Assembly: GCA_025455065.1 (NCBI GenBank)
Contig: JALONG010000004.1
Span: forward strand, 86,690 to 150,689
Source: Candidatus Kapaibacterium sp.
GTDB taxonomy: Bacteria; Bacteroidota; Ignavibacteria; Kapaibacteriales; UBA4661
DNA: 64,000 bases
Direction of reading: 5' to 3'
Both the position numbers and the translations under genes were made by a program. Below the pieces are notes generated by a model. It had not been told where the DNA came from. It did no database searches and worked only from the letters and a program-made list of their open reading frames with translations. The first letter of the stretch is position 1; every line of letters begins with the position of its first letter. Shown piece after piece: positions 11,194 to 57,000 of this stretch.

Positions 11194-11302
11194 AGGACAA
11201 CAAGAAAAACAGTGTTGAGTGCTAAATGTTGAGTGCTAAATGTTGAGTGCTGAGTTCCGCGTTTTGCGTGTCAAACTTGACGCAAAGCCTCACCAAACCA
11301 CG

Positions 11303-13864: not shown

Positions 13865-14011
13865 TTCCCCGTTGAGGGGCTGGACTGAGAAGCCTCTGCT
13901 TTTAAGAAAGGAGTGATTGACGAATAAACAACCTTTTATGGCACAGACACAGCCTCATCTTGTCTGGGCAGTTTCCTGACTATTTTCAGCAAACTCATCT
14001 TTCCAAAACAG

Positions 14012-17741: not shown

Positions 17742-18521
17742 ATGGGAAAACGATGGCGAATATTGCGACCAATCACAAACATTATGAATCTATATTTTTT
17801 ACCCTTTGCCGCATCGTTGCTGCTTTTTTTGCCGAAAGCACTCAATGCGCAAAATGATAACCCGCATTGGCGCATTGCGAGTACGTTTCTCCAAAACCGA
17901 AGACAAACCAATGACCCCACAAGAATAGCACTCGGCAGCGTACTCAATTTTTACGGCTATAACGACCTCCAGCCCCAATTTGAAAAAGATTTTTCTTCCA
18001 TTCCGAACCGTTATCAAACGGGCGAAAACTATGATAACTTTGTTGCCGACATGACGAACTGGACACTCCTTCCCATCTACTGGGGCGGTACGGCGTGGTC
18101 AACGGCGGTGTCGGTGGTCAGTTTTATAGGGGGTGATATTCTCGGCGGCATCTGGCACGCCTTCGGCGCGGTGCAGTGGTCACGTGGGGCAACATACCTG
18201 ACGTGGACAGCGAAACACGACTGGAATAAGCTCATAGGCGCACAGCGTACGGTACAAAAGCAAGTCTTTGTCATCCGCACCCAGTTCAATTTCCCATGGG
18301 TTTTTGCGGGCAACGTACTGCTGGATGTCGTTGAAGATACTGACGGCGATGGACTCTTTGGGGAGGAGGCGCAGAAATATAGAGGAACTAACTCTATTGG
18401 TTTATACGAAGCCGAAGGTATGAGCCATAATGTGTCCTCGAATCATCCAAAATCCAAACAGCAGTTTGAGAGAGCGTTTGATAACCCGAATATCCCATTT
18501 TACGCACCCAAAAGGAGATAA
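17742..18521 (+). CDS. Secreted hypothetical protein carrying a glycine-rich hydrophobic module (first gene of a four-gene cassette)
   Basis: Signal-peptide-like N-terminus (MGKRWRILRPITNIMNLYFLPFAASLLLFLPKALNAQ); the alternative start is 17784. Hydrophobic segment MTNWTLLPIYWGGTAWSTAVSVVSFIGGDILGGIWHAFGAVQW. No family recognised. Confidence 0.5.
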   Translation: MGKRWRILRPITNIMNLYFLPFAASLLLFLPKALNAQNDNPHWRIASTFLQNRRQTNDPTRIALGSVLNFYGYNDLQPQFEKDFSSIPNRYQTGENYDNFVADMTNWTLLPIYWGGTAWSTAVSVVSFIGGDILGGIWHAFGAVQWSRGATYLTWTAKHDWNKLIGAQRTVQKQVFVIRTQFNFPWVFAGNVLLDVVEDTDGDGLFGEEAQKYRGTNSIGLYEAEGMSHNVSSNHPKSKQQFERAFDNPNIPFYAPKRR

Positions 18522-19718: not shown

Positions 19719-19915
19719 GCAGAAGCATACATATTGCCGGCATGACGAACTGGACACTCCTCCCCGCCTTCTGGGGCGCGACGGCGTGGTCAACGGCGGT
19801 GTCGGTGGTAAACTTTGTGGGCGGTAATGTGGTGGGCGGGCTGTGGCACGCTTTCGGTGCTGTGCAGTGGTCACGCGATGAATTACTGGAAATGGCGCAA
19901 TCGCTGATTCGATAA
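19715..19915 (+). CDS. 66-aa orphan paralog of the glycine-rich hydrophobic module
   Basis: MTNWTLLPAFWGATAWSTAVSVVNFVGGNVVGGLWHAFGAVQWSRD aligns with 36 of 46 residues identical to residues of the 17742 gene. The start overlaps the upstream stop (ATGA). Confidence 0.4.
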   Translation: MSRSIHIAGMTNWTLLPAFWGATAWSTAVSVVNFVGGNVVGGLWHAFGAVQWSRDELLEMAQSLIR

Positions 19916-23115: not shown

Positions 23116-23137
23116 GCACAGACAGGAATGTCTGTGC
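23116..23137. repeat. Palindromic repeat core gcacagacaggaatgtctgtgc (dispersed family member)
   Basis: Perfect 9-bp arms with a 4-nt spacer and the shared flanks ctcGCACAGACA...TGTCTGTGCcactga. Located in the lepA-lepB intergenic region. Confidence 0.7.
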
Positions 23138-23264
23138 CACTGATTGTCAAACTTACCATTTTGTGTTCGAGCCAATTCTCATACAAACAAAGGTATCGTA
23201 ATTCCGAACCATTACTTTTGAGACTTTTCCAAGCACTCAACCTTCTTTACTCATCATTTCAATT

Positions 23265-28105: not shown

Positions 28106-28245
28106 AAACGTTGTTCTTCAAAACAGAATAGAAGTCGAAAAATGACAACAGTGTGAAAGTGAGGTTTGATGGGGTCTTGATGTACTGCCATTGTGGATTG
28201 ATAATTGTACTTTATTGTTATTGAGCCTTTTATTCCATGAGCCGC

Positions 28246-28326
28246 ACCAATACTCGCACAGACAAAAATGTCTGTGCCACTGAAGCCTGTTTTTATGCAC
28301 AATTATCAACTCAAATTGGTGTAACA
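28246..28326. repeat. Partial copy of the composite dispersed repeat (palindrome core plus 3' module)
   Basis: tactcGCACAGACAaaaaTGTCTGTGCcactgaagcctgtttttatgcacaattatcaactcaaattggt. Matches 50153-50205. Confidence 0.7.
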
Positions 28327-28335
28327 CTTCTTAGT

Positions 28336-28452
28336 GTTAGGACTTTCGCAAAACCATACTTGTGAGGCAAGGGGTTGAAACCCCTTGTTGCGTAAGTCAT
28401 TGTTTAACAAGGGGCTTTAGCCCCTTGCGACTTGTGTTTGCGAAAGTCCTAA
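28336..28452. repeat. 117-bp nested palindrome: 15-bp terminal inverted repeats (taggactttcgcaaa / tttgcgaaagtcctaa) enclosing two 8-bp-stem hairpins (caaggggttgaaaccccttg; caaggggctttagccccttg)
   Basis: Read directly from the sequence. Lies between the 3' end of ribBA and the 5' end of prfC. MITE-like or structured-RNA-like. Confidence 0.6.
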
Positions 28453-29811: not shown

Positions 29812-29861
29812 CCAAAAAACAAAAAGTCTGTGCTACCGAATAATTCTTGAGTAGCACAGAC
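29812..29861 (-). terminator. Rho-independent terminator for the minus-strand gene at 29899-30828
   Basis: 11-bp stem gtctgtgctac / gtagcacagac with a 14-nt loop. A U-run follows on the minus strand (A-run 29812-29825 on plus). The stem sequence is related to the dispersed palindrome family. Confidence 0.55.
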
Positions 29862-29898
29862 CGTAATTGTCGTGAGTGTTTGCGTGATTGCGAGTATT

Positions 29899-36911: not shown

Positions 36912-37622
36912 ATGAGACTTCTGTTGTTTGATATTGATGGCACTCTCGTTTCCGTCGAGCGCAGTGCTTCGCGGATGATGCTTCGCCGCGTTGTTGAAGA
37001 AATTTTCGCCATTGAGTTACCACCACATTTCGAGTTTCAACTTGGCGGAAAGACCGATTACCAAATTATGACCGAAACCGCACAAATGCTGGATTTACCG
37101 ACAAAGCTCGTGGAAGAAAAGCGTGAGCAGATTCAGGATGTTTTGACACAACACACGGCAACACTCTCGAACCCCGAAACTATGCGCATTTTGGAGGGTG
37201 TGAAGCATTTAGTTGAGCATCTGGCTTCGCGCAACGATGTTGCCTTAGCGCTTCTCACAGGAAATCTCGAAACAACGGCTCTGCTCAAACTCCGTCCGCA
37301 TGGCTTAGATAGGCACTTTCCGGTGGGGGCGTTTGGTTCTGACCATATTGACCGCACCATGCTTCCGCCGATTGCGCTCAAACGTGCAAATGCCCATTAC
37401 AAAACACAGCACGGTTTCCATATCAATTTCGAGGCAAAAAACACGCTTATCATTGGCGATACACTGAACGACATTGCCTGCGCCAAGGCTCATGGAATCA
37501 AGACCTTAGCTGTAGCTACTGGTACAGTTGGCATGGGAACACTCCGCGAAGCAGGTGCGGAATTTGTTGTGGAAAATTTTGCGGATATGCAAGCAATTAC
37601 GGATATTGCGACGAATTTTTGA
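36912..37622 (+). CDS. HAD-superfamily hydrolase (phosphatase-like)
   Basis: Motif I LLFDIDGTL and motif IV GDTLNDIACAKAHG. Confidence 0.8.
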   Translation: MRLLLFDIDGTLVSVERSASRMMLRRVVEEIFAIELPPHFEFQLGGKTDYQIMTETAQMLDLPTKLVEEKREQIQDVLTQHTATLSNPETMRILEGVKHLVEHLASRNDVALALLTGNLETTALLKLRPHGLDRHFPVGAFGSDHIDRTMLPPIALKRANAHYKTQHGFHINFEAKNTLIIGDTLNDIACAKAHGIKTLAVATGTVGMGTLREAGAEFVVENFADMQAITDIATNF

Positions 37623-37667
37623 GTTTTACCGCTCAGGTATGACCGCTCAATGAGTTTTACCGCTCAG

Positions 37668-37775
37668 GTATTATACCAATTTACGTTGAAGATTGTGCAT
37701 TGTTTTTTCAATGCTTTTCTCTGGAAGCAGCATAAATACTCGCACAGACAAGAATGTCTGTGCCACTGACTTCTC
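37668..37775. repeat. Partial copy of the composite dispersed repeat (5' module plus palindrome core)
   Basis: tataccaatttacgttgaagattgtgcattgttttttcaatgcttttctctggaagcagcataaatactcGCACAGACAagaaTGTCTGTGCcactga. Matches 50019-50118. Confidence 0.75.
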
Positions 37776-38446
37776 CCAATATCATCATTGCCCTTGACGG
37801 TCCGGCAGGTTCGGGCAAAAGCACCACAGCTCGCCGTGTGGCGGAAGCGCTGGGCTATGTGTACATTGACACCGGCGCTATGTACCGCGCAATCACGCTT
37901 GCTGCCTTGCGGGAAGAACGCTCCATTACGAACTCCGACTTGCTTCCCATTGTCAAAGAGTATCAATTACAACTCACCATTTCACCCGACGGACAGCGTA
38001 CAATCTTGGGGCGCGAGGATGTTACCGAAGAAATTCGCTCGCCGGAAGTGACAAAACTTGTAAGCGCTGTTAGCGCTTTGCCGTCGGTGCGCGAAGCAAT
38101 GTCAAAACGGCAGCGCGAAATGGGCAAAAACGGTGGTGTTGTCATGGACGGGCGGGACATTGGAACGGTCGTGTTCCCCGAAGCCGAACTGAAAATTTTT
38201 CTTATAGCATCGCTCGAAGAACGCGCTAAACGCCGATTGGCGGAACTAAAGGACAGTTCTGTTTCGCTGGAAGAAATGTGCAAGCAAATCAGTGAACGCG
38301 ACAAGCAAGACACAGAGCGCCTTGTCAGCCCCTTGCGCAAAGCGGACGATGCCGTTGAAATTGATACTTCCGCGCTCAGTATTGATGCTCAAACAGAGCG
38401 TATTTTGGCGCTGGCACGGGAACGTATTGCGGCAAAGCGGGGATGA
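37754..38446 (+). CDS. cmk: Cytidylate kinase
   Basis: IIIALDGPAGSGKST P-loop and DTGAMYR motif. The ATG start lies inside the spacer of the palindromic repeat. Confidence 0.9.
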   Translation: MSVPLTSPNIIIALDGPAGSGKSTTARRVAEALGYVYIDTGAMYRAITLAALREERSITNSDLLPIVKEYQLQLTISPDGQRTILGREDVTEEIRSPEVTKLVSAVSALPSVREAMSKRQREMGKNGGVVMDGRDIGTVVFPEAELKIFLIASLEERAKRRLAELKDSSVSLEEMCKQISERDKQDTERLVSPLRKADDAVEIDTSALSIDAQTERILALARERIAAKRG

Positions 38447-39229: not shown

Positions 39230-39434
39230 GACGAAATGTTGAGTTTTAAGTGTTGAGTTTTGAGTGGTAATACACCCGAAACAAACCATTAAAAAAGTCG
39301 TAATTTGTAGAACGGTTTCAGTGTATATCGAAACACCTGCTACACAGTTCAAAGCCAAAGCCGATGCAATGACTATTGCCGCGCTTTGGCTTTTCTGTCG
39401 TTACGGGTTTTGTTTCACTTTTTTGCGATTCGTT

Positions 39435-48930: not shown

Positions 48931-50016
48931 ATGAAAACTCCCCCTTCATCCTCAACCACCCCGCGAACCCGCGCCCGTACTCGCTTCGGAGCGCAAGAAC
49001 ACTCTGCGCCCTCGCCAAATTCGCATGAGCAGTCAGAAAAGCATTCTCCAAGCGGTTTACAGGTCTTGCAGCAAATCCGCATTACGCCCCGTCGGTTGAA
49101 AGAATCGCTCACAACGGCAGAAATACTGACACTGACGATGCTTACGTTTTATACGGTTTTGGGCTGTATTTTTGCGACGGTCGTGGAAAATACGCTCATG
49201 TACATCGTGGTAAATTGCTGTTTTATGTGGATGCAATGCGCCTTAGCGGTAAGCGTGTCGGAGAACGAAACGGGGCGTATCTTTCGGTCATTGCTCATTG
49301 CGCGGCGATTTTTCCTGCTTCCGGCGATTTATTTCATTTACTCCCAATCCCACCTGTATATCACGCACATCAACCCGCATGATTACGACGCATTGCTGGC
49401 AGAATGGGACGTTGCGCTCTTTGGCGTGTATCCGACGCGCTGGATATATCAATTCGCACACCCGCTTTTGACGGAGTTCTTGCAAATTTGTTATTTCCTC
49501 TATTTCTGGATTCCCGTTGGCTTGGGGGCTGAATTTTACACGTCGCGCCCGACGATTTACTACACGCGCTATGCGCTTTACGTGGCGTGTGTGAGTTATG
49601 CGCTGTATCTGGGATATTTTTTTATGCCGGCAATCGGTCCTTGCTTCACGCTGCATGATTTTTCGCAGTGGAACGCCGAACTTCCGGGCATCGTTTTTGC
49701 CGAACCGCTCCGCGCTATTGTCAATAACGGCTCCGGCGCAGGCACGGCGACACCGCATCTGACCGCGCACCGCAACTGTATGCCAAGCGGTCACACGATG
49801 GTAACGCTGCTGAATATGATGATTGCTTTTCGGTGGAAGTCGCGTTTTCGCTGGGGGTATTTCGTTATTGGTTGCGGCATTATTGTTTCGACGATTTATC
49901 TGCGCTATCACTACGTGGTGGATTTGCTTGCCGGAGCGGTAGTAACGGTCTTGGCGCTGCTTTTTGCAAGGGTTTTGGAGCGTACCTTGAGGAAGATTGG
50001 TTTTGCTGCGGCGTAA
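48931..50016 (+). CDS. PAP2-superfamily membrane protein (phosphatase / phospholipid-headgroup transferase-like)
   Basis: PSGH and R-x5-H-x3-D motifs (CMPSGHT, RYHYVVDLLAG) in a multi-TM protein. Start uncertain; the N-terminal ~60 aa may not be coding. Confidence 0.55.
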   Translation: MKTPPSSSTTPRTRARTRFGAQEHSAPSPNSHEQSEKHSPSGLQVLQQIRITPRRLKESLTTAEILTLTMLTFYTVLGCIFATVVENTLMYIVVNCCFMWMQCALAVSVSENETGRIFRSLLIARRFFLLPAIYFIYSQSHLYITHINPHDYDALLAEWDVALFGVYPTRWIYQFAHPLLTEFLQICYFLYFWIPVGLGAEFYTSRPTIYYTRYALYVACVSYALYLGYFFMPAIGPCFTLHDFSQWNAELPGIVFAEPLRAIVNNGSGAGTATPHLTAHRNCMPSGHTMVTLLNMMIAFRWKSRFRWGYFVIGCGIIVSTIYLRYHYVVDLLAGAVVTVLALLFARVLERTLRKIGFAAA

Positions 50017-50018
50017 GG

Positions 50019-50205
50019 TTTTATACCAATTTACGCTGAGGATTGTGCATTATTTTTTCAATGCTTTTCTCTGGAAGCAGCATAAATACTCGCACAGACA
50101 AGAATGTCTGTGCCACTGACATAAATACTCGCACAGACAAGAATGTCTGTGCCACTGAAGCCGGATTTTTTTGCACAGTTATCAACTCAAATTGGTATTA
50201 TGCTG
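50019..50205. repeat. Most complete copy of the composite dispersed repeat (5' module, two tandem palindrome cores, 3' module), MITE/REP-like
   Basis: ttttataccaatttacgctgaggattgtgcattattttttcaatgcttttctctggaagcagcataaatactcGCACAGACAagaaTGTCTGTGCcactgacataaatactcGCACAGACAagaaTGTCTGTGCcactgaagccggatttttttgcacagttatcaactcaaattggt. Modules are shared with 37668-37775 and 28246-28326. Confidence 0.75.
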
Positions 50206-52290: not shown

Positions 52291-52420
52291 GTAGCACAGA
52301 CATTCCTGTCTGTGTCCGAAATGAGCAAAGCGAATAATCTTCAAGCAGGGTAATTTCAGTAAGATACGGCATTACGCCTATCGGCGTTAAAGACACAGAC
52401 AAGAGTGTCTGTGCCACGAA
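52291..52420. repeat. Two diverged, oppositely oriented palindrome cores (gtagcacagacattcctgtctgtg; gacacagacaagagtgtctgtgcc) flanking a small hairpin (acgcctatcggcgt)
   Basis: Members of the same CACAGACA-N-TGTCTGTG family. Located downstream of both convergent genes (AI-2E and mltG). Confidence 0.6.
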
Positions 52421-53539: not shown

Positions 53540-53636
53540 GATGTATTCAACATTTGATGAACTTTAAGGCTGCTAATATGCGAAATTTCCTTCAGGCGAC
53601 AAAGCGCCATTCTCGAAAACACGCTTCAAATAATCT

Positions 53637-54078
53637 TCTTCGTAGCACAGACATTCCTGTCTGTGTCCCTAACGCCGTTAGGCGTAATTCCGAAAGGACA
53701 GCAATGGGTGAAAATTCTTCCCGTAGCACAGACATTCCTGTCTGTGCCCCTAACGCCGTTAGGCGTAATTCCAAAAGAACAGCAATGGGTGAAAATTCTT
53801 CCCGTAGCACAGACATTCCTGTCTGTGCCCCTAACGCCGTCAGGCGTAATTCCGAAAGGCATAATACCAAAATCATCGTAACAACAACCTTTTCAAGATT
53901 ATACGCTTCGCGTATTAGTGACACAGACAAGAATGCCCGTGCTACGGGGGGAGAAGACATTCTTGTCTGTGTTTCTAACGCTGAAAGGCATAATACCGAA
54001 AGTATCGTAACAACAACCTTTTCAAGATTATACGCTTCGCGTATTAGTGGCACAGACAAGAATGTCTGTGCTACGGGT
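53637..54078. repeat. Tandem repeat array: three 81-bp units followed by two ~126-bp units, each containing the CACAGACA-N3-TGTCTGTG palindrome (not CRISPR)
   Basis: Units start at 53641, 53722 and 53803 and are nearly identical (cgtagcacagacattcctgtctgtg[t/c]ccctaacgccgttaggcgtaattcc...agcaatgggtgaaaattcttcc). A second unit type starts at 53858 and 53984 (ggcataatacc...cgtattagtg[a/g]cacagacaagaatg...). Lies in the divergent mltG / M1-peptidase intergenic region. Confidence 0.8.
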
Positions 54079-54080
54079 GT

Positions 54081-57000
54081 CATTGTGTTACTTCTGATGC
54101 TTGCCGCACTATCCCTCCAAGCCCAGCCCACAAGCGGCTTCCCGCAAAACCTCGAAGAACGCCTCAAACAAGAGCGCCTCGCGGGGCTTGTCCACACGAT
54201 GAACGTTACGGTTAATGATGATGATTACACCTTCAAAGGCACGTCCCGCGTGGAGTTCACCAATAACACGCCTGACACGCTGCGCCAAATCTTCTTCCAC
54301 GCCCATTTCAACGCCTTTCAGCCGAACAGCCTCACGCATAAGCGCGTTGCGGCAATCGGTCCGAACCGCTTAAAACCTGAAACCTTTGCTAATCTCAAAC
54401 CAAACGAAATCGGCAAACTTGACATTCTGCCCGGCACAAGTAATGGAGCGCCTTTCACGGTAGAGCGCTTGGGAACGATTATCCGCTTAGACCTTGCAAA
54501 ACCGCTTCTGCCCGAAGAGCGCACCACGCTTGAGTTTGCCTTTGAGGGACAAGTTCCCGTGCAGGTGCGGCGCTCAGGGCGCAATAATGCTCAAGGTGTG
54601 CGCTATTCGATGGCGCAATGGTTTCCGAAATTATGTCAATACGACCAACACGGCTGGCAAAATAACCAATTTGTTTTGCGAGAATTTTACGGCGTGTGGG
54701 GTAAATATGATGTGAAAATTACGCTTCCCGCAAAGTACGTCGTTGGCGCTTCCGGCGACCTCCAAAACCCGCAAGAATGCGGCTTCGGCTATCCCTTCAC
54801 CGGAAGCGCCGCAAGCGACACAACCGTTATGCCGCTTCCCGATGCACAAAAGCCACAAGGCACGAAAACATGGCACTTTGTGGCATTTCCCGTGCATGAT
54901 TTCGCGTGGGTTGCCGATGCGGACTATATTCACCGCGTCGTCAAAATGCCAGTTTCTTCGCCAGTTTCGGCAGGAATGACCTTTCACATTCTCACCAAAC
55001 CCAAGTACGACGCGGTTTGGAAGAACGCTGTGGATTGGCTGCCGCGTGTCTTTCGCTTTATGGGCGAGAAGTATTTGCCATATCCTTACAAGCAATTTAC
55101 CTGCACACAAGCGGGCGACGGCGGTATGGAGTACCCAAATTTGGTGATGATTCGGAGCGGTGATTACAACGGGACGCTTGGCACAGTCGCGCACGAGGCA
55201 ATACACCAGTGGTTTTACGGCATGGCGGCGAATAACGAAACCAAACACGCTTGGATGGACGAAGGCATCACCGATTACCTCACCGACCGCATTATGGCTG
55301 AGGAGTTTAAGATTGATGAGCAGCAGCGCTCCACGTGGCTAGAGCAGACGCTCATTCCGCGCCGCAAGGACGCTTTAGAATCGAATCGGGCGTTTTTGCG
55401 GGTGTATGCGCTTGGCTACGATGAACCGCTCTCTATCCCGCATGACCGCTTTAACGAGGACATGACCGCCGTGATGGTTTACCGCAAAGGTTCGGCGTGG
55501 ATGCGGCAATTTGAGTATTCGTTTGGCAAGGACAAGGTTGATGAACTACTGAGGAATTATCAGGCTCAGTGGCGTTTCCGTCACCCATATCCGCCGGATT
55601 TCGAGAAATTGGCAAGCGAAACTTTTGGGCAGCGCATGGATGAAGTGTTTGACACCTTTTTGCGCGGCACGGAACTTCCCGATTACACGCTTCAATCCTT
55701 GCGTTCTGAGCCGACAAGCGACGGAAAATTCAAAAACACGCTGCAAATGACCAAACGCGAACGCGCTCACGTGCCGCTTCGCCTCTTTGCAACGGATGTG
55801 GGCGGTCAGCGCAGCATTTTGACGATTCCCAGCGATATGCTGAATGCGCCAAACAACGACACAAGCCGCCTTGCGCCTTGGTTCTGGGCAGCAGGCGATT
55901 ACACCGCAGAATTTATCACCCAAACCCCACTCCGTGAAGTTCGGCTGGACACCGCAGGAAATCTGCTTCGCCAAGACCTCACGAAAAATAGCATTCAAGC
56001 GGGCGGATTGTTTCCTGCCATGCCGGATGTCAAATTCGGCTTTATGACGCGCTTCGACGAAGCTATGCCGCTTGATTATTATGGTGTGTCGGTGCGCCCG
56101 TCGGTGTGGTTTGACCCGCTTGGGGGCTTGCAACTTGGGGTAAGGGCGGATGGTGTTGGCGGCTACAATACGCCAAAAATCACGGCTGGGGCGTATTACA
56201 ATTTGGGGAATCGGCGGTTTGATTGGCAGGTGGGGCTTCAGCAGACGCTTGGCGGGAATGGGGTTATTAACACTTTTGACGCGAAAATCTTTAGTATGGA
56301 TGGAGTTCGTGGGGTTTCTTTGCGGGCATTGAACGACATTCGCCCAACGCGATATGCCCGTGAGTCATTCGGGCTGAGTTCGATAATGATTGACTTTTTA
56401 GACTTCGGAGATGATAGTTATCTACTGCCCGAAATATCCAGTACAACCTTCAGAGGTGCAATGATGCGGTTGGGTGCAATCAGTGAACAACGCTGGCGAA
56501 ATGGCTATGTGCAATTAGAGGCAAATATTTCGTCTGACGGTTTTATTTTTATCGACGGACAAGTTCGATTTGAATGGTCAGACACTTTTTTTGAATCACC
56601 GTATTTCAGCATAAAACCTCGTGCTTTCGTGTATTTGGCAACTATCGGAACGCCGCGCTTCTTACAATATTCCCTTCAAAGTGGTACTTCACTAGAGCGT
56701 TTTGAAAATATACCGGCACGCTATACACGTTTCGCGGCTTACAATTTTAATCTCCCTGTTTTCACACAAGGAGGCGGTGGGTTCGTAAATTCTGCAAACG
56801 AGGCGACAAGCGCTATTGCGGCTGTCAATCTCTTTTTGGGGAACAAAACACTTAGATCAATGGGCGTAAATATTTTTGGAATTGAAGTGCTAAAGCCCGG
56901 TGCATGGATTTCAGCAGCGTTTGCGCCCATACGTACCCAAAGTTCTTTTGACTTCAACTTCGACTCCGGCATCTCACTCGGCATCAATCTCGCAGACATC

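Follow-up and report, generated by a model that had tools for sequence, protein, structure and literature searches.

Probable REP sequences of the GTAG/GTGG-footed class, and a MITE-like composite that carries them, in a Candidatus Kapabacteria genome

The intergenic regions of a 64-kb window of a Candidatus Kapabacteria genome (the window being the whole stretch of DNA analysed, 64,000 nucleotides of contig JALONG010000004.1) carry a family of short hairpins, and these are very probably repetitive extragenic palindromic (REP) sequences of the GTAG/GTGG-footed class, of the kind spread by REP-associated tyrosine transposases (RAYTs). The hairpin, GCACAGACA-N4-TGTCTGTGC, consists of two 9-bp arms that pair perfectly around a loop of 4 nt. 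The pattern CACAGACA-N4-TGTCTGTG, allowing at most two mismatches, gave 12 matches in the window against 0.01 expected from shuffled sequences. Eleven copies are exact (23116, 28256, 37742, 50092, 50131, 52294, 52393, 53645, 53726, 53807 and 54050), the copy at 53921 has two mismatches, and a family-level scan of the window added a degenerate thirteenth copy at 53951; together with two remnants, the 13 copies are spread over eight intergenic regions. The initial annotation of this DNA had proposed a dispersed palindromic family with a loop of 3–4 nt at nine or more intergenic sites. The family is real and every site listed was found, one start moving from 37743 to 37742, but the copies occupy eight intergenic regions and the loop is 4 nt long throughout, a search pattern with a 3-nt spacer (NNN) giving no matches.

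The REP is 25 nt long and reads GT[AG]G-CACAGACA-YTCY-TGTCTGTG-C. On the strand whose loop is pyrimidine-rich (TTCC, TTCT or CTCT), GTAG or GTGG stands at the foot of the stem in all 11 exact window copies, and it is this asymmetry of the loop, pyrimidine-rich on the foot strand, that allows the orientation of each copy to be read. The stem has 8 bp (CACAGACA), or 9 bp when the last G of the foot is paired with the closing C, and its basal bases are GCAC. An operational definition of REPs places GTAG or GTGG 0–2 nt 5' of the foot of a fully paired basal stem of 7–20 nt with a loop of 2–5 nt, and further asks for at least three G/C among the first four basal stem bases (PMC6006769). The window hairpins agree with this definition in foot, stem, loop and basal G/C content, and also in being multi-copy and extragenic, with one copy overlapping the annotated start codon of cmk and the others lying outside genes.

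The same sequence is found well beyond this organism. When one genome per species was searched, the 22-mer was present in at least 116 stretches, and the cross-genome figures that follow rest on the matches listed. The sources listed are Thermoanaerobaculia, Acidiferrales and other Acidobacteriota, Ignavibacteria, Verrucomicrobiota, Cloacimonadota and others, together with the planctomycete groups Pirellulales, Gemmatales (including the isolate Gemmata algarum JC673) and Planctomycetaceae. Hairpins with the exact core in other genomes have a GT[AG]G foot in 153 of 168 cases, and their foot-strand loop follows N-T-C-Y, with T at position 2 in 97% and C at position 3 in 94%. Beyond the 25 nt of foot, stem and loop there is zero conservation across other genomes. 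The earlier claim that conservation reaches beyond the palindrome is therefore correct for this lineage and does not extend to the others, which have kept the 25 nt only.

In order not to presuppose the stem, sequences were also selected by anchoring on ACA-loop-TGT only. The five pairs outward of this anchor were paired in 86–92% of the sequences, with pairing ending at the foot; pairs 4 and 5 kept their pairing via four Watson-Crick types, whereas shuffled sequences gave 46–52% pairing. GTRG was present at a fixed offset in 121 of the 169 sequences selected in this way. The stem structure of the REP is real and is upheld by compensatory covariation.

In other genomes, this hairpin stands next to RAYT genes. 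A metagenome-assembled genome (MAG) of Ignavibacteria (L028) has REPs identical to those of the window on both sides of a 148-aa open reading frame (ORF) in inverted orientation, two on the plus strand upstream and one on the minus strand downstream. Against NCBIfam NF047646 'REP-associated tyrosine transposase', whose curated cut-off is 80, this ORF reaches 85.8 bits; it also matches Pfam Y1_Tnp, and its sole match in the PDB is E. coli TnpA_REP, 4ER8 (E = 0.0011). It has 518 homologues at E <= 1e-10, several of which are named RayT by JGI, from sources that include Chlorobi, Pirellulales, Tepidisphaeraceae and Xenobia; in an Acidobacteria MAG (L097), the 3' end of one RAYT homologue lies 50 nt from the same REP. 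A scan of metagenomes gave 67 loci of related RAYTs, of which 60 had GTRG-footed hairpins within 400 nt of the gene, typically with the upstream hairpin on the plus strand and the downstream hairpin on the minus strand, and 13 of the 67 had the exact window-type stem. RAYTs that are 50–57% identical adjoin related REPs, such as GTAG-GACAGACA-TTCC and GTAG-GACAGGCA-TTCT. Within the stem, the inner part CAG[A/G]CA hardly changes, and neither does the loop; the outer 2–4 pairs vary compensatorily, and variants of stem and loop group together on the tree of RAYTs. Motifs conserved in the alignment of these RAYTs are RNLPHW, the HUH motif (D/N-H-V/A-H), IMKGIKG, WQDESFDR and the tyrosine motif YMxxNP. 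No relatives of this RAYT were found in the viral contigs searched.

In two Ignavibacteria assemblies, the RAYT gene occupies the same spot, between a TPM-phosphatase gene and der (engA) (L028 439–2766; L196 5473–7937), and the two RAYTs are 73% identical. This shared position is consistent with vertical, housekeeping-like inheritance.

By analogy with the REP systems studied so far, the REPs of this family are most likely bound and cleaved by a RAYT on single-stranded DNA, an action supported here by the homology to 4ER8 and by the HUH and Y motifs, which are conserved. Once single-stranded, a REP would fold into a hairpin of 8–9 bp, leaving the GTRG foot unpaired as the guide tetranucleotide for the RAYT (TnpA_REP), an HUH/Y1 enzyme that is usually present in one copy per genome. 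The enzyme would bind, cut and rejoin REP hairpins, spreading them in trans to intergenic DNA, and may also drive local rearrangement, by reiterating REPs in tandem, by forming inverted dimers and by deletions whose ends fall on the borders of REPs. In this genome, a RAYT gene would be expected to have inverted GTRGCACAGACA hairpins around it. Side effects on the host, for example through mRNA structure, may follow.

The REPs of the window occur as singletons, as an inverted dimer, as tandem clusters carrying flanking DNA and as a double-foot copy, and two forms can be told apart in this lineage: type A, a unit of 36 nt, and type B, a REP with a second small hairpin. Dimers, tandem clusters and double-foot forms are documented for GTAG-type REPs (PMC3733652, PMC6006769). 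The features are as follows, in window positions.

13941..13971, plus strand: diverged REP remnant in the rsmB/ABC ATPase spacer, made of GCACAGACA, an 11-nt loop and TGTCTGGGC, with one stem mismatch and a degenerate ATGG foot.
23116..23140, minus strand: solo type-A REP, GTGG-CACAGACA-TTCC-TGTCTGTG-C, in the lepA-lepB spacer.
28240..28322, minus strand: older, diverged partial composite in the prfC/ribBA spacer, comprising the final 16 nt of the left arm, then the REP (hairpin 28256–28277, loop TTTT), then the right arm; identity to the copy at 50024 about 88%.
29826..29864, strand unassigned: REP remnant with swapped halves upstream of ribBA, GTCTGTGCTAC, 14 nt and GTAGCACAGAC, that is, two foot-proximal half stems placed tail-to-tail with their feet facing inward, which makes an 11-bp hairpin.
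37672..37769, minus strand: shortened composite, left arm and type-A REP unit, hairpin 37742–37763.
50021..50200, minus strand (REP foot strand): full composite, TACCAATTT...AAATTGGTA at 50024–50197, with TTA at 50021–50023 and 50198–50200; central type-A REP unit of 39 nt present twice in tandem (hairpins 50092–50113 and 50131–50152).
52291..52417, strand unassigned: inverted, REPIN-like REP dimer with feet outward in the spacer where the AI-2E-transporter gene and mltG converge; plus-strand GTAG REP (52291–52315), 77-nt spacer, minus-strand GTGG REP (52393–52417).
53641..53858, plus strand: array in which an 81-bp type-B unit is repeated 2.7 times in tandem (GTAG REP, then a small ACGCC-GTTA-GGCGT hairpin, then spacer), with REP hairpins at 53645, 53726 and 53807.
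53847..54077, strand unassigned: 102-nt segment present twice, 129 nt from start to start and 91% identical, with degenerate REPs at 53921–53945 (minus strand, two mismatches) and 53951–53972 (plus strand), and a 'double-foot' REP, GTGG...CTAC, at 54047–54074, some 15–30 nt ahead of where the M1 peptidase gene probably starts.

Two sites that had been described as diverged copies, at 13942 and 29826, are present as the remnants listed; recombination or inversion between two REPs is one possible origin of the second. The inverted dimer folds into a single long hairpin (z = -6.5). Multiple copies had also been noted in an array at 53637–54078, and six were found there, in 2.7 copies of the 81-bp unit followed by the 129-bp repeat. 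A long ORF across this array (53.6–54.1 kb) encodes a repeated peptide only, and the M1 peptidase most likely starts at about 54087–54099. A CRISPR array was considered for the 81-bp tandem and rejected, as the copies share 96% identity over the whole unit, 'spacer' included. Searches of the window with Rfam at gathering thresholds and with ARAGORN gave no matches.

Some of the REPs are embedded in a larger element. This composite is non-coding, has the ends TACCAATTT...AAATTGGTA and measures 135 nt with one central type-A REP; at 50024–50197 it measures 174 nt because the 39-nt REP unit is duplicated (an exact tandem duplication, 50081–50158). Its terminal inverted repeats are perfect over 9 bp and extend to about 27 bp when imperfect matches are allowed, the same ends are found in three full copies, and its arms pair around the REP hairpin (fold z = -4.8). 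The modules that the initial annotation had recognised in the sequence correspond to parts of this composite. The 5' module said to be shared at 37668 and 50019 is a 105-nt segment with 96% identity (37666–37770 against 50016–50120), the 3' module at 28278 and 50153 was recovered as the match of 28240–28322 to the REP and right arm, and the copy at 50019–50205, thought to contain every module, does hold them all. Among the loci fetched, the arms were seen only in loci from this population. The family is thus two-layered, with an old REP lineage linked to a clade of RAYTs and a young, lineage-specific element resembling a miniature inverted-repeat transposable element (MITE).

As a unit, the composite has been mobile recently. 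In short-read contigs of the same population (the end of L117, L216 and L217), the HAD-cmk spacer contains a full composite, and this site is empty, with otherwise the same flanks, in L218, a related strain of a different sample whose Cmk is 97% identical. The comparison of filled (L117 and L216) and empty (L218) alleles gives a clean 141-nt indel with flanks 97–100% identical on both sides, a presence/absence polymorphism of the kind that the initial annotation had proposed to look for in related strains. In addition, a phage contig from the same sample (L207, IMGVR_UViG_3300037462_000758) has, at 1401–1537 and next to an HK97-type capsid gene, a single-REP composite 99–100% identical to that of the window. 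The idea of a mobile, MITE- or REP-like family was thus well founded in both its parts, the REP by its foot, stem, loop and identical sequence beside RAYT genes elsewhere, the composite by its terminal inverted repeats, its empty site and its phage copy.

Sixteen further IMG/VR contigs (the L199–L215 set) hold exact GTRG-footed REPs. Close relatives hold REPs at non-orthologous sites, and the lepA-lepB spacer of relatives whose LepA is 93–94% identical has no REP, these spacers being too diverged or rearranged to define an insertion site. One such relative (bin62, L126; LepA 94% identical) has a second REP variant with a CGCAGACA stem besides the GCACAGACA type (sites 7017, 7073 and 9823), with one REP copy directly upstream of lepA. 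At the HAD-cmk site, a direct duplication of about 31 nt begins with the HAD stop codon (TGAGTTTTACCGCTCAGGTATGAC... twice, window 37620–37671), and the composite is inserted into its second copy. As the empty-site strain L218 has this duplication too, it is older than the insertion.

An alternative possibility, which we regard as open to serious doubt, is that the whole family is a DDE-type MITE, in which an IS5/Harbinger-like transposase would act on TACCAATTT/AAATTGGTA, move the 135-bp composite and duplicate TWA, the central hairpin being cargo and the solo hairpins decay products. The perfect 9-bp terminal inverted repeats, the clean filled/empty polymorphism and the near-identical copy in the phage contig are all as this explanation predicts, and so are the 3-nt direct repeats that lie beside three of three full composites (TTA/TTA, TAA/TAA and TTA/TTA), which suggest a TWA target duplication and hence a DDE-type transposase. 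However, since only one nucleotide varies in three copies, these repeats lend weak support, roughly p = 0.04. They are candidates for the target-site duplications that the initial annotation had proposed to look for, but the empty site in L218 (GGTATGACAG) does not agree exactly with the predicted pre-insertion sequence. No parent insertion sequence with the inverted repeats of the composite was found in the window or the fetched loci. Furthermore, the 25-nt footed hairpin stands without arms at most window sites and in many phyla that lack the arms, where it adjoins RAYT genes; arm-less, RAYT-flanking hairpins across phyla indicate that the hairpin family is older than the composite and independent of it. 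The DDE explanation may hold for the composite alone, which would leave the REP explanation in place. A RAYT is the presumed mover of the composite, and a DDE transposase acting on the inverted repeats a possible one.

Several observations weigh against RAYT-spread REPs as the explanation of the family. The terminal inverted repeats and 3-nt repeats of the composite are more readily explained by a DDE-type MITE than by Y1 transposition, in which the target is not duplicated. The window encodes no RAYT by tblastn, so that we can only infer that this genome encodes a cognate one. The motifs of the RAYTs of about 150 aa found in other genomes fall between subclasses 2.4, 2.5 and 2.7 and fit none of them cleanly (subclass motifs in Table 1 of PMC6006769). 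Finally, most window copies are singletons or head-to-tail repeats and not inverted doublets, the form proposed to be mobile as a REPIN.

The shortened copies have their breakpoints exactly on the boundaries of the 36-nt type-A unit (AATACTC/hairpin/CACTGA), which points to REP-directed recombination. In the window assembly, the HAD-cmk composite stops at CACTGA and is fused directly to codon 4 of cmk, a junction that corresponds to a 150-nt deletion relative to the short-read allele of the same sample. As a result of this deletion, the cmk start ATG at 37754 lies inside the REP, in its loop and 3' arm, and the N-terminus of Cmk reads MSVPLTSPN in the window (37742–37800), compared with MPSSSPN in short-read contigs of the same population (L216, 1–200) and in the related strain (L218, 2860–3040). 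The junction may be a real REP-border deletion that re-made the start of the gene, or it may be an assembly artefact.

Assembly breaks coincide with the repeats elsewhere too. LepA and Cmk of the window match, at 100% identity, proteins that NCBI assigns to a 'Candidatus Kapabacteria bacterium' MAG. JGI sample 3300037462 and SRR12684587 both contain contigs that match the window at 100% identity and stop at the repeats, with short-read contig ends (L117, 1–58; the ends of L118 and L217) at about 28.4 kb and 37.7 kb of the window. One JGI contig joins 37769 to sequence like that at 50120–50177 via the shared REP unit, and its overhang, which resembles the 50.1-kb copy, belongs to the full composite at the HAD-cmk site, of which it is the right arm. 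REP and arm repeats limit the contiguity of the MAG.

The genes that flank the copies are lepA, lepB, prfC, ribBA, a HAD hydrolase gene, cmk, genes for a PAP2 protein, a Uma2 protein and an AI-2E-family transporter, mltG, the M1 peptidase gene, rsmB and an ABC ATPase gene, and the copies lie in spacers between same-direction genes, in a convergent spacer (52291–52417) and in a divergent promoter region (53540–54080). Most copies are downstream of genes or between genes of the same direction, as they would be if the hairpins were mainly RNA or DNA signals (terminators, attenuators or mRNA-stabilising stem-loops) selected at each site rather than transposed, and E. coli REPs are indeed known to affect termination and mRNA stability (PMC6006769). 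The type-A unit also passes a loose terminator scan on the minus strand. We nevertheless judge this explanation improbable. The matches of the terminator scan at 50092 and 50131 run antisense to both neighbouring genes, and the six-copy cluster fills a divergent promoter region. Independent selection cannot yield identity of sequence, foot and asymmetric loop across phyla, and it leaves the linkage to RAYT genes and the insertion polymorphism unexplained. Rho-independent terminators were considered and rejected, as the run of T (U in the RNA) after the hairpin is missing on the sense strand of the flanking genes. Effects on termination or mRNA structure are possible as by-products of the REP copies.

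The remaining explanation is that a dimeric transcription factor uses the palindrome as its operator to control a regulon. A perfect 9-bp inverted repeat with fixed 4-nt spacing would suit this explanation, as would the copies upstream of cmk, the Uma2 gene and the M1 peptidase gene. It can be dismissed with near certainty, and the initial annotation had likewise preferred a mobile family to operators. The flanking genes are unrelated housekeeping genes without functional coherence; further copies stand in a convergent spacer, in tandem arrays and in a phage; foot and loop are conserved in an asymmetric form, for which a symmetric duplex operator has no need; and the stem positions covary to keep pairing and not sequence.

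The window has further repeats besides the REPs. At 28340–28450, downstream of ribBA and adjoining a REP copy, there is a 110-nt long palindrome, TTAGGACTTTCGCAAA...TTTGCGAAAGTCCTAA, around two G+C-rich hairpins (CAAGGGGTTGAAACCCCTTG and CAAGGGGCTTTAGCCCCTTG), which is single-copy in the window. A 14-nt tandem repeat, TGTTGAGT(G/T)(C/T)TAA(A/G), occurs at the unrelated intergenic sites 11210–11269 and 39234–39265 and constitutes a separate small dispersed repeat. Positions 18043–18184 and 19734–19875 share a 142-nt repeat with 83% identity, a paralogous coding segment in two neighbouring genes (peptide ..MTNWTLLP..WGxTAWSTAVSVV..GGxWHAFGAVQWSR) that is outside the REP family.

The family is a clear but ordinary example of known bacterial mobile DNA, a REP/RAYT system with a MITE-like derivative. 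Its recognition explains about 1.2 kb of puzzling intergenic repeats in the window, accounts for the breaks and mis-joins of short-read assemblies here, and flags a cmk start that lies inside a repeat. The hairpin, in the form GTRG-xxCAGACA-YTCY-TGTCTGxx, is near-frozen, being nucleotide-identical in Acidobacteriota, Planctomycetota, Ignavibacteria/Kapabacteria and Verrucomicrobiota. Searches of literature full text for the hairpin sequence matched unrelated papers only, neither the text nor the supplements of the GTAG-repeat survey contain this sequence, and a search for literature on RAYTs together with these phyla returned nothing relevant. We raise, tentatively, the possibility of an undescribed and very widespread REP-RAYT lineage, in which the hairpin stayed near-frozen across phyla while its RAYT of about 150 aa diverged to about 40% identity. 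If this were true, it would contradict the view of REPs as species-specific, and the composite inside a phage genome would offer a concrete route for the spread of REPs between genomes. To our knowledge, REP-RAYT systems have been studied almost solely in Proteobacteria. One hairpin found across many phyla and co-varying with its RAYT would suit studies of hairpin recognition and of movement between phyla, and the REP-carrying composite, with its empty site and phage copy, represents a recent event that could be followed in time-series metagenomes.

Compared with the GTAG-type REPs and TnpA_REP enzymes known from E. coli (REP/BIME-YafM, 4ER8), Pseudomonas and Stenotrophomonas (Nunvar 2010, PMC2817692; Di Nocera 2013, PMC3733652; Quentin 2018, PMC6006769), the family is alike in having GT[AG]G at the 5' foot of a short perfect hairpin and in being extragenic and multi-copy, with singletons, inverted dimers, tandem clusters and double-foot forms. 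The arrangement seen in other genomes, with identical REPs placed in inverted orientation around a single HUH/Y1 RAYT gene, is that of a REPtron, and the presence of several REP subtypes in one genome recalls E. coli with its Y, Z1 and Z2. The family differs in its host, a member of the Kapabacteria (Bacteroidota/Chlorobi group), in its stem CACAGACA and in its YTCY loop. REPs have been described as species-specific (PMC6006769), whereas the same 25-mer is here nucleotide-identical in several phyla. The associated RAYTs are short (about 150 aa) and, with DHVH or NHAH, WQ and YMxxNP, differ from the published subclasses in offering no clean single fit. The dimer at 52291–52417, with its inverted REPs, 77-nt spacer and one long hairpin, resembles REPINs (Bertels and Rainey 2011, PMC3116915), unlike the polymorphic unit, which is a single REP within a composite bounded by inverted repeats and not a doublet. 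REP-RAYT systems are described as single-copy and mostly vertical, and the RAYT position at TPM-phosphatase/der in two Ignavibacteria assemblies agrees with this. Bacterial MITEs derived from DDE elements include those of IS5/IS1031 type, which have a 3-bp TNA duplication. The composite shares with such MITEs its small size (135 bp), its non-coding nature, its inverted repeats and its candidate 3-bp TWA repeats, and likewise folds into a long hairpin and is polymorphic for presence and absence. It departs from them in that it has no known parent insertion sequence, carries a bona fide REP at its centre and has given rise to shortened copies that break exactly at the borders of the REP unit.

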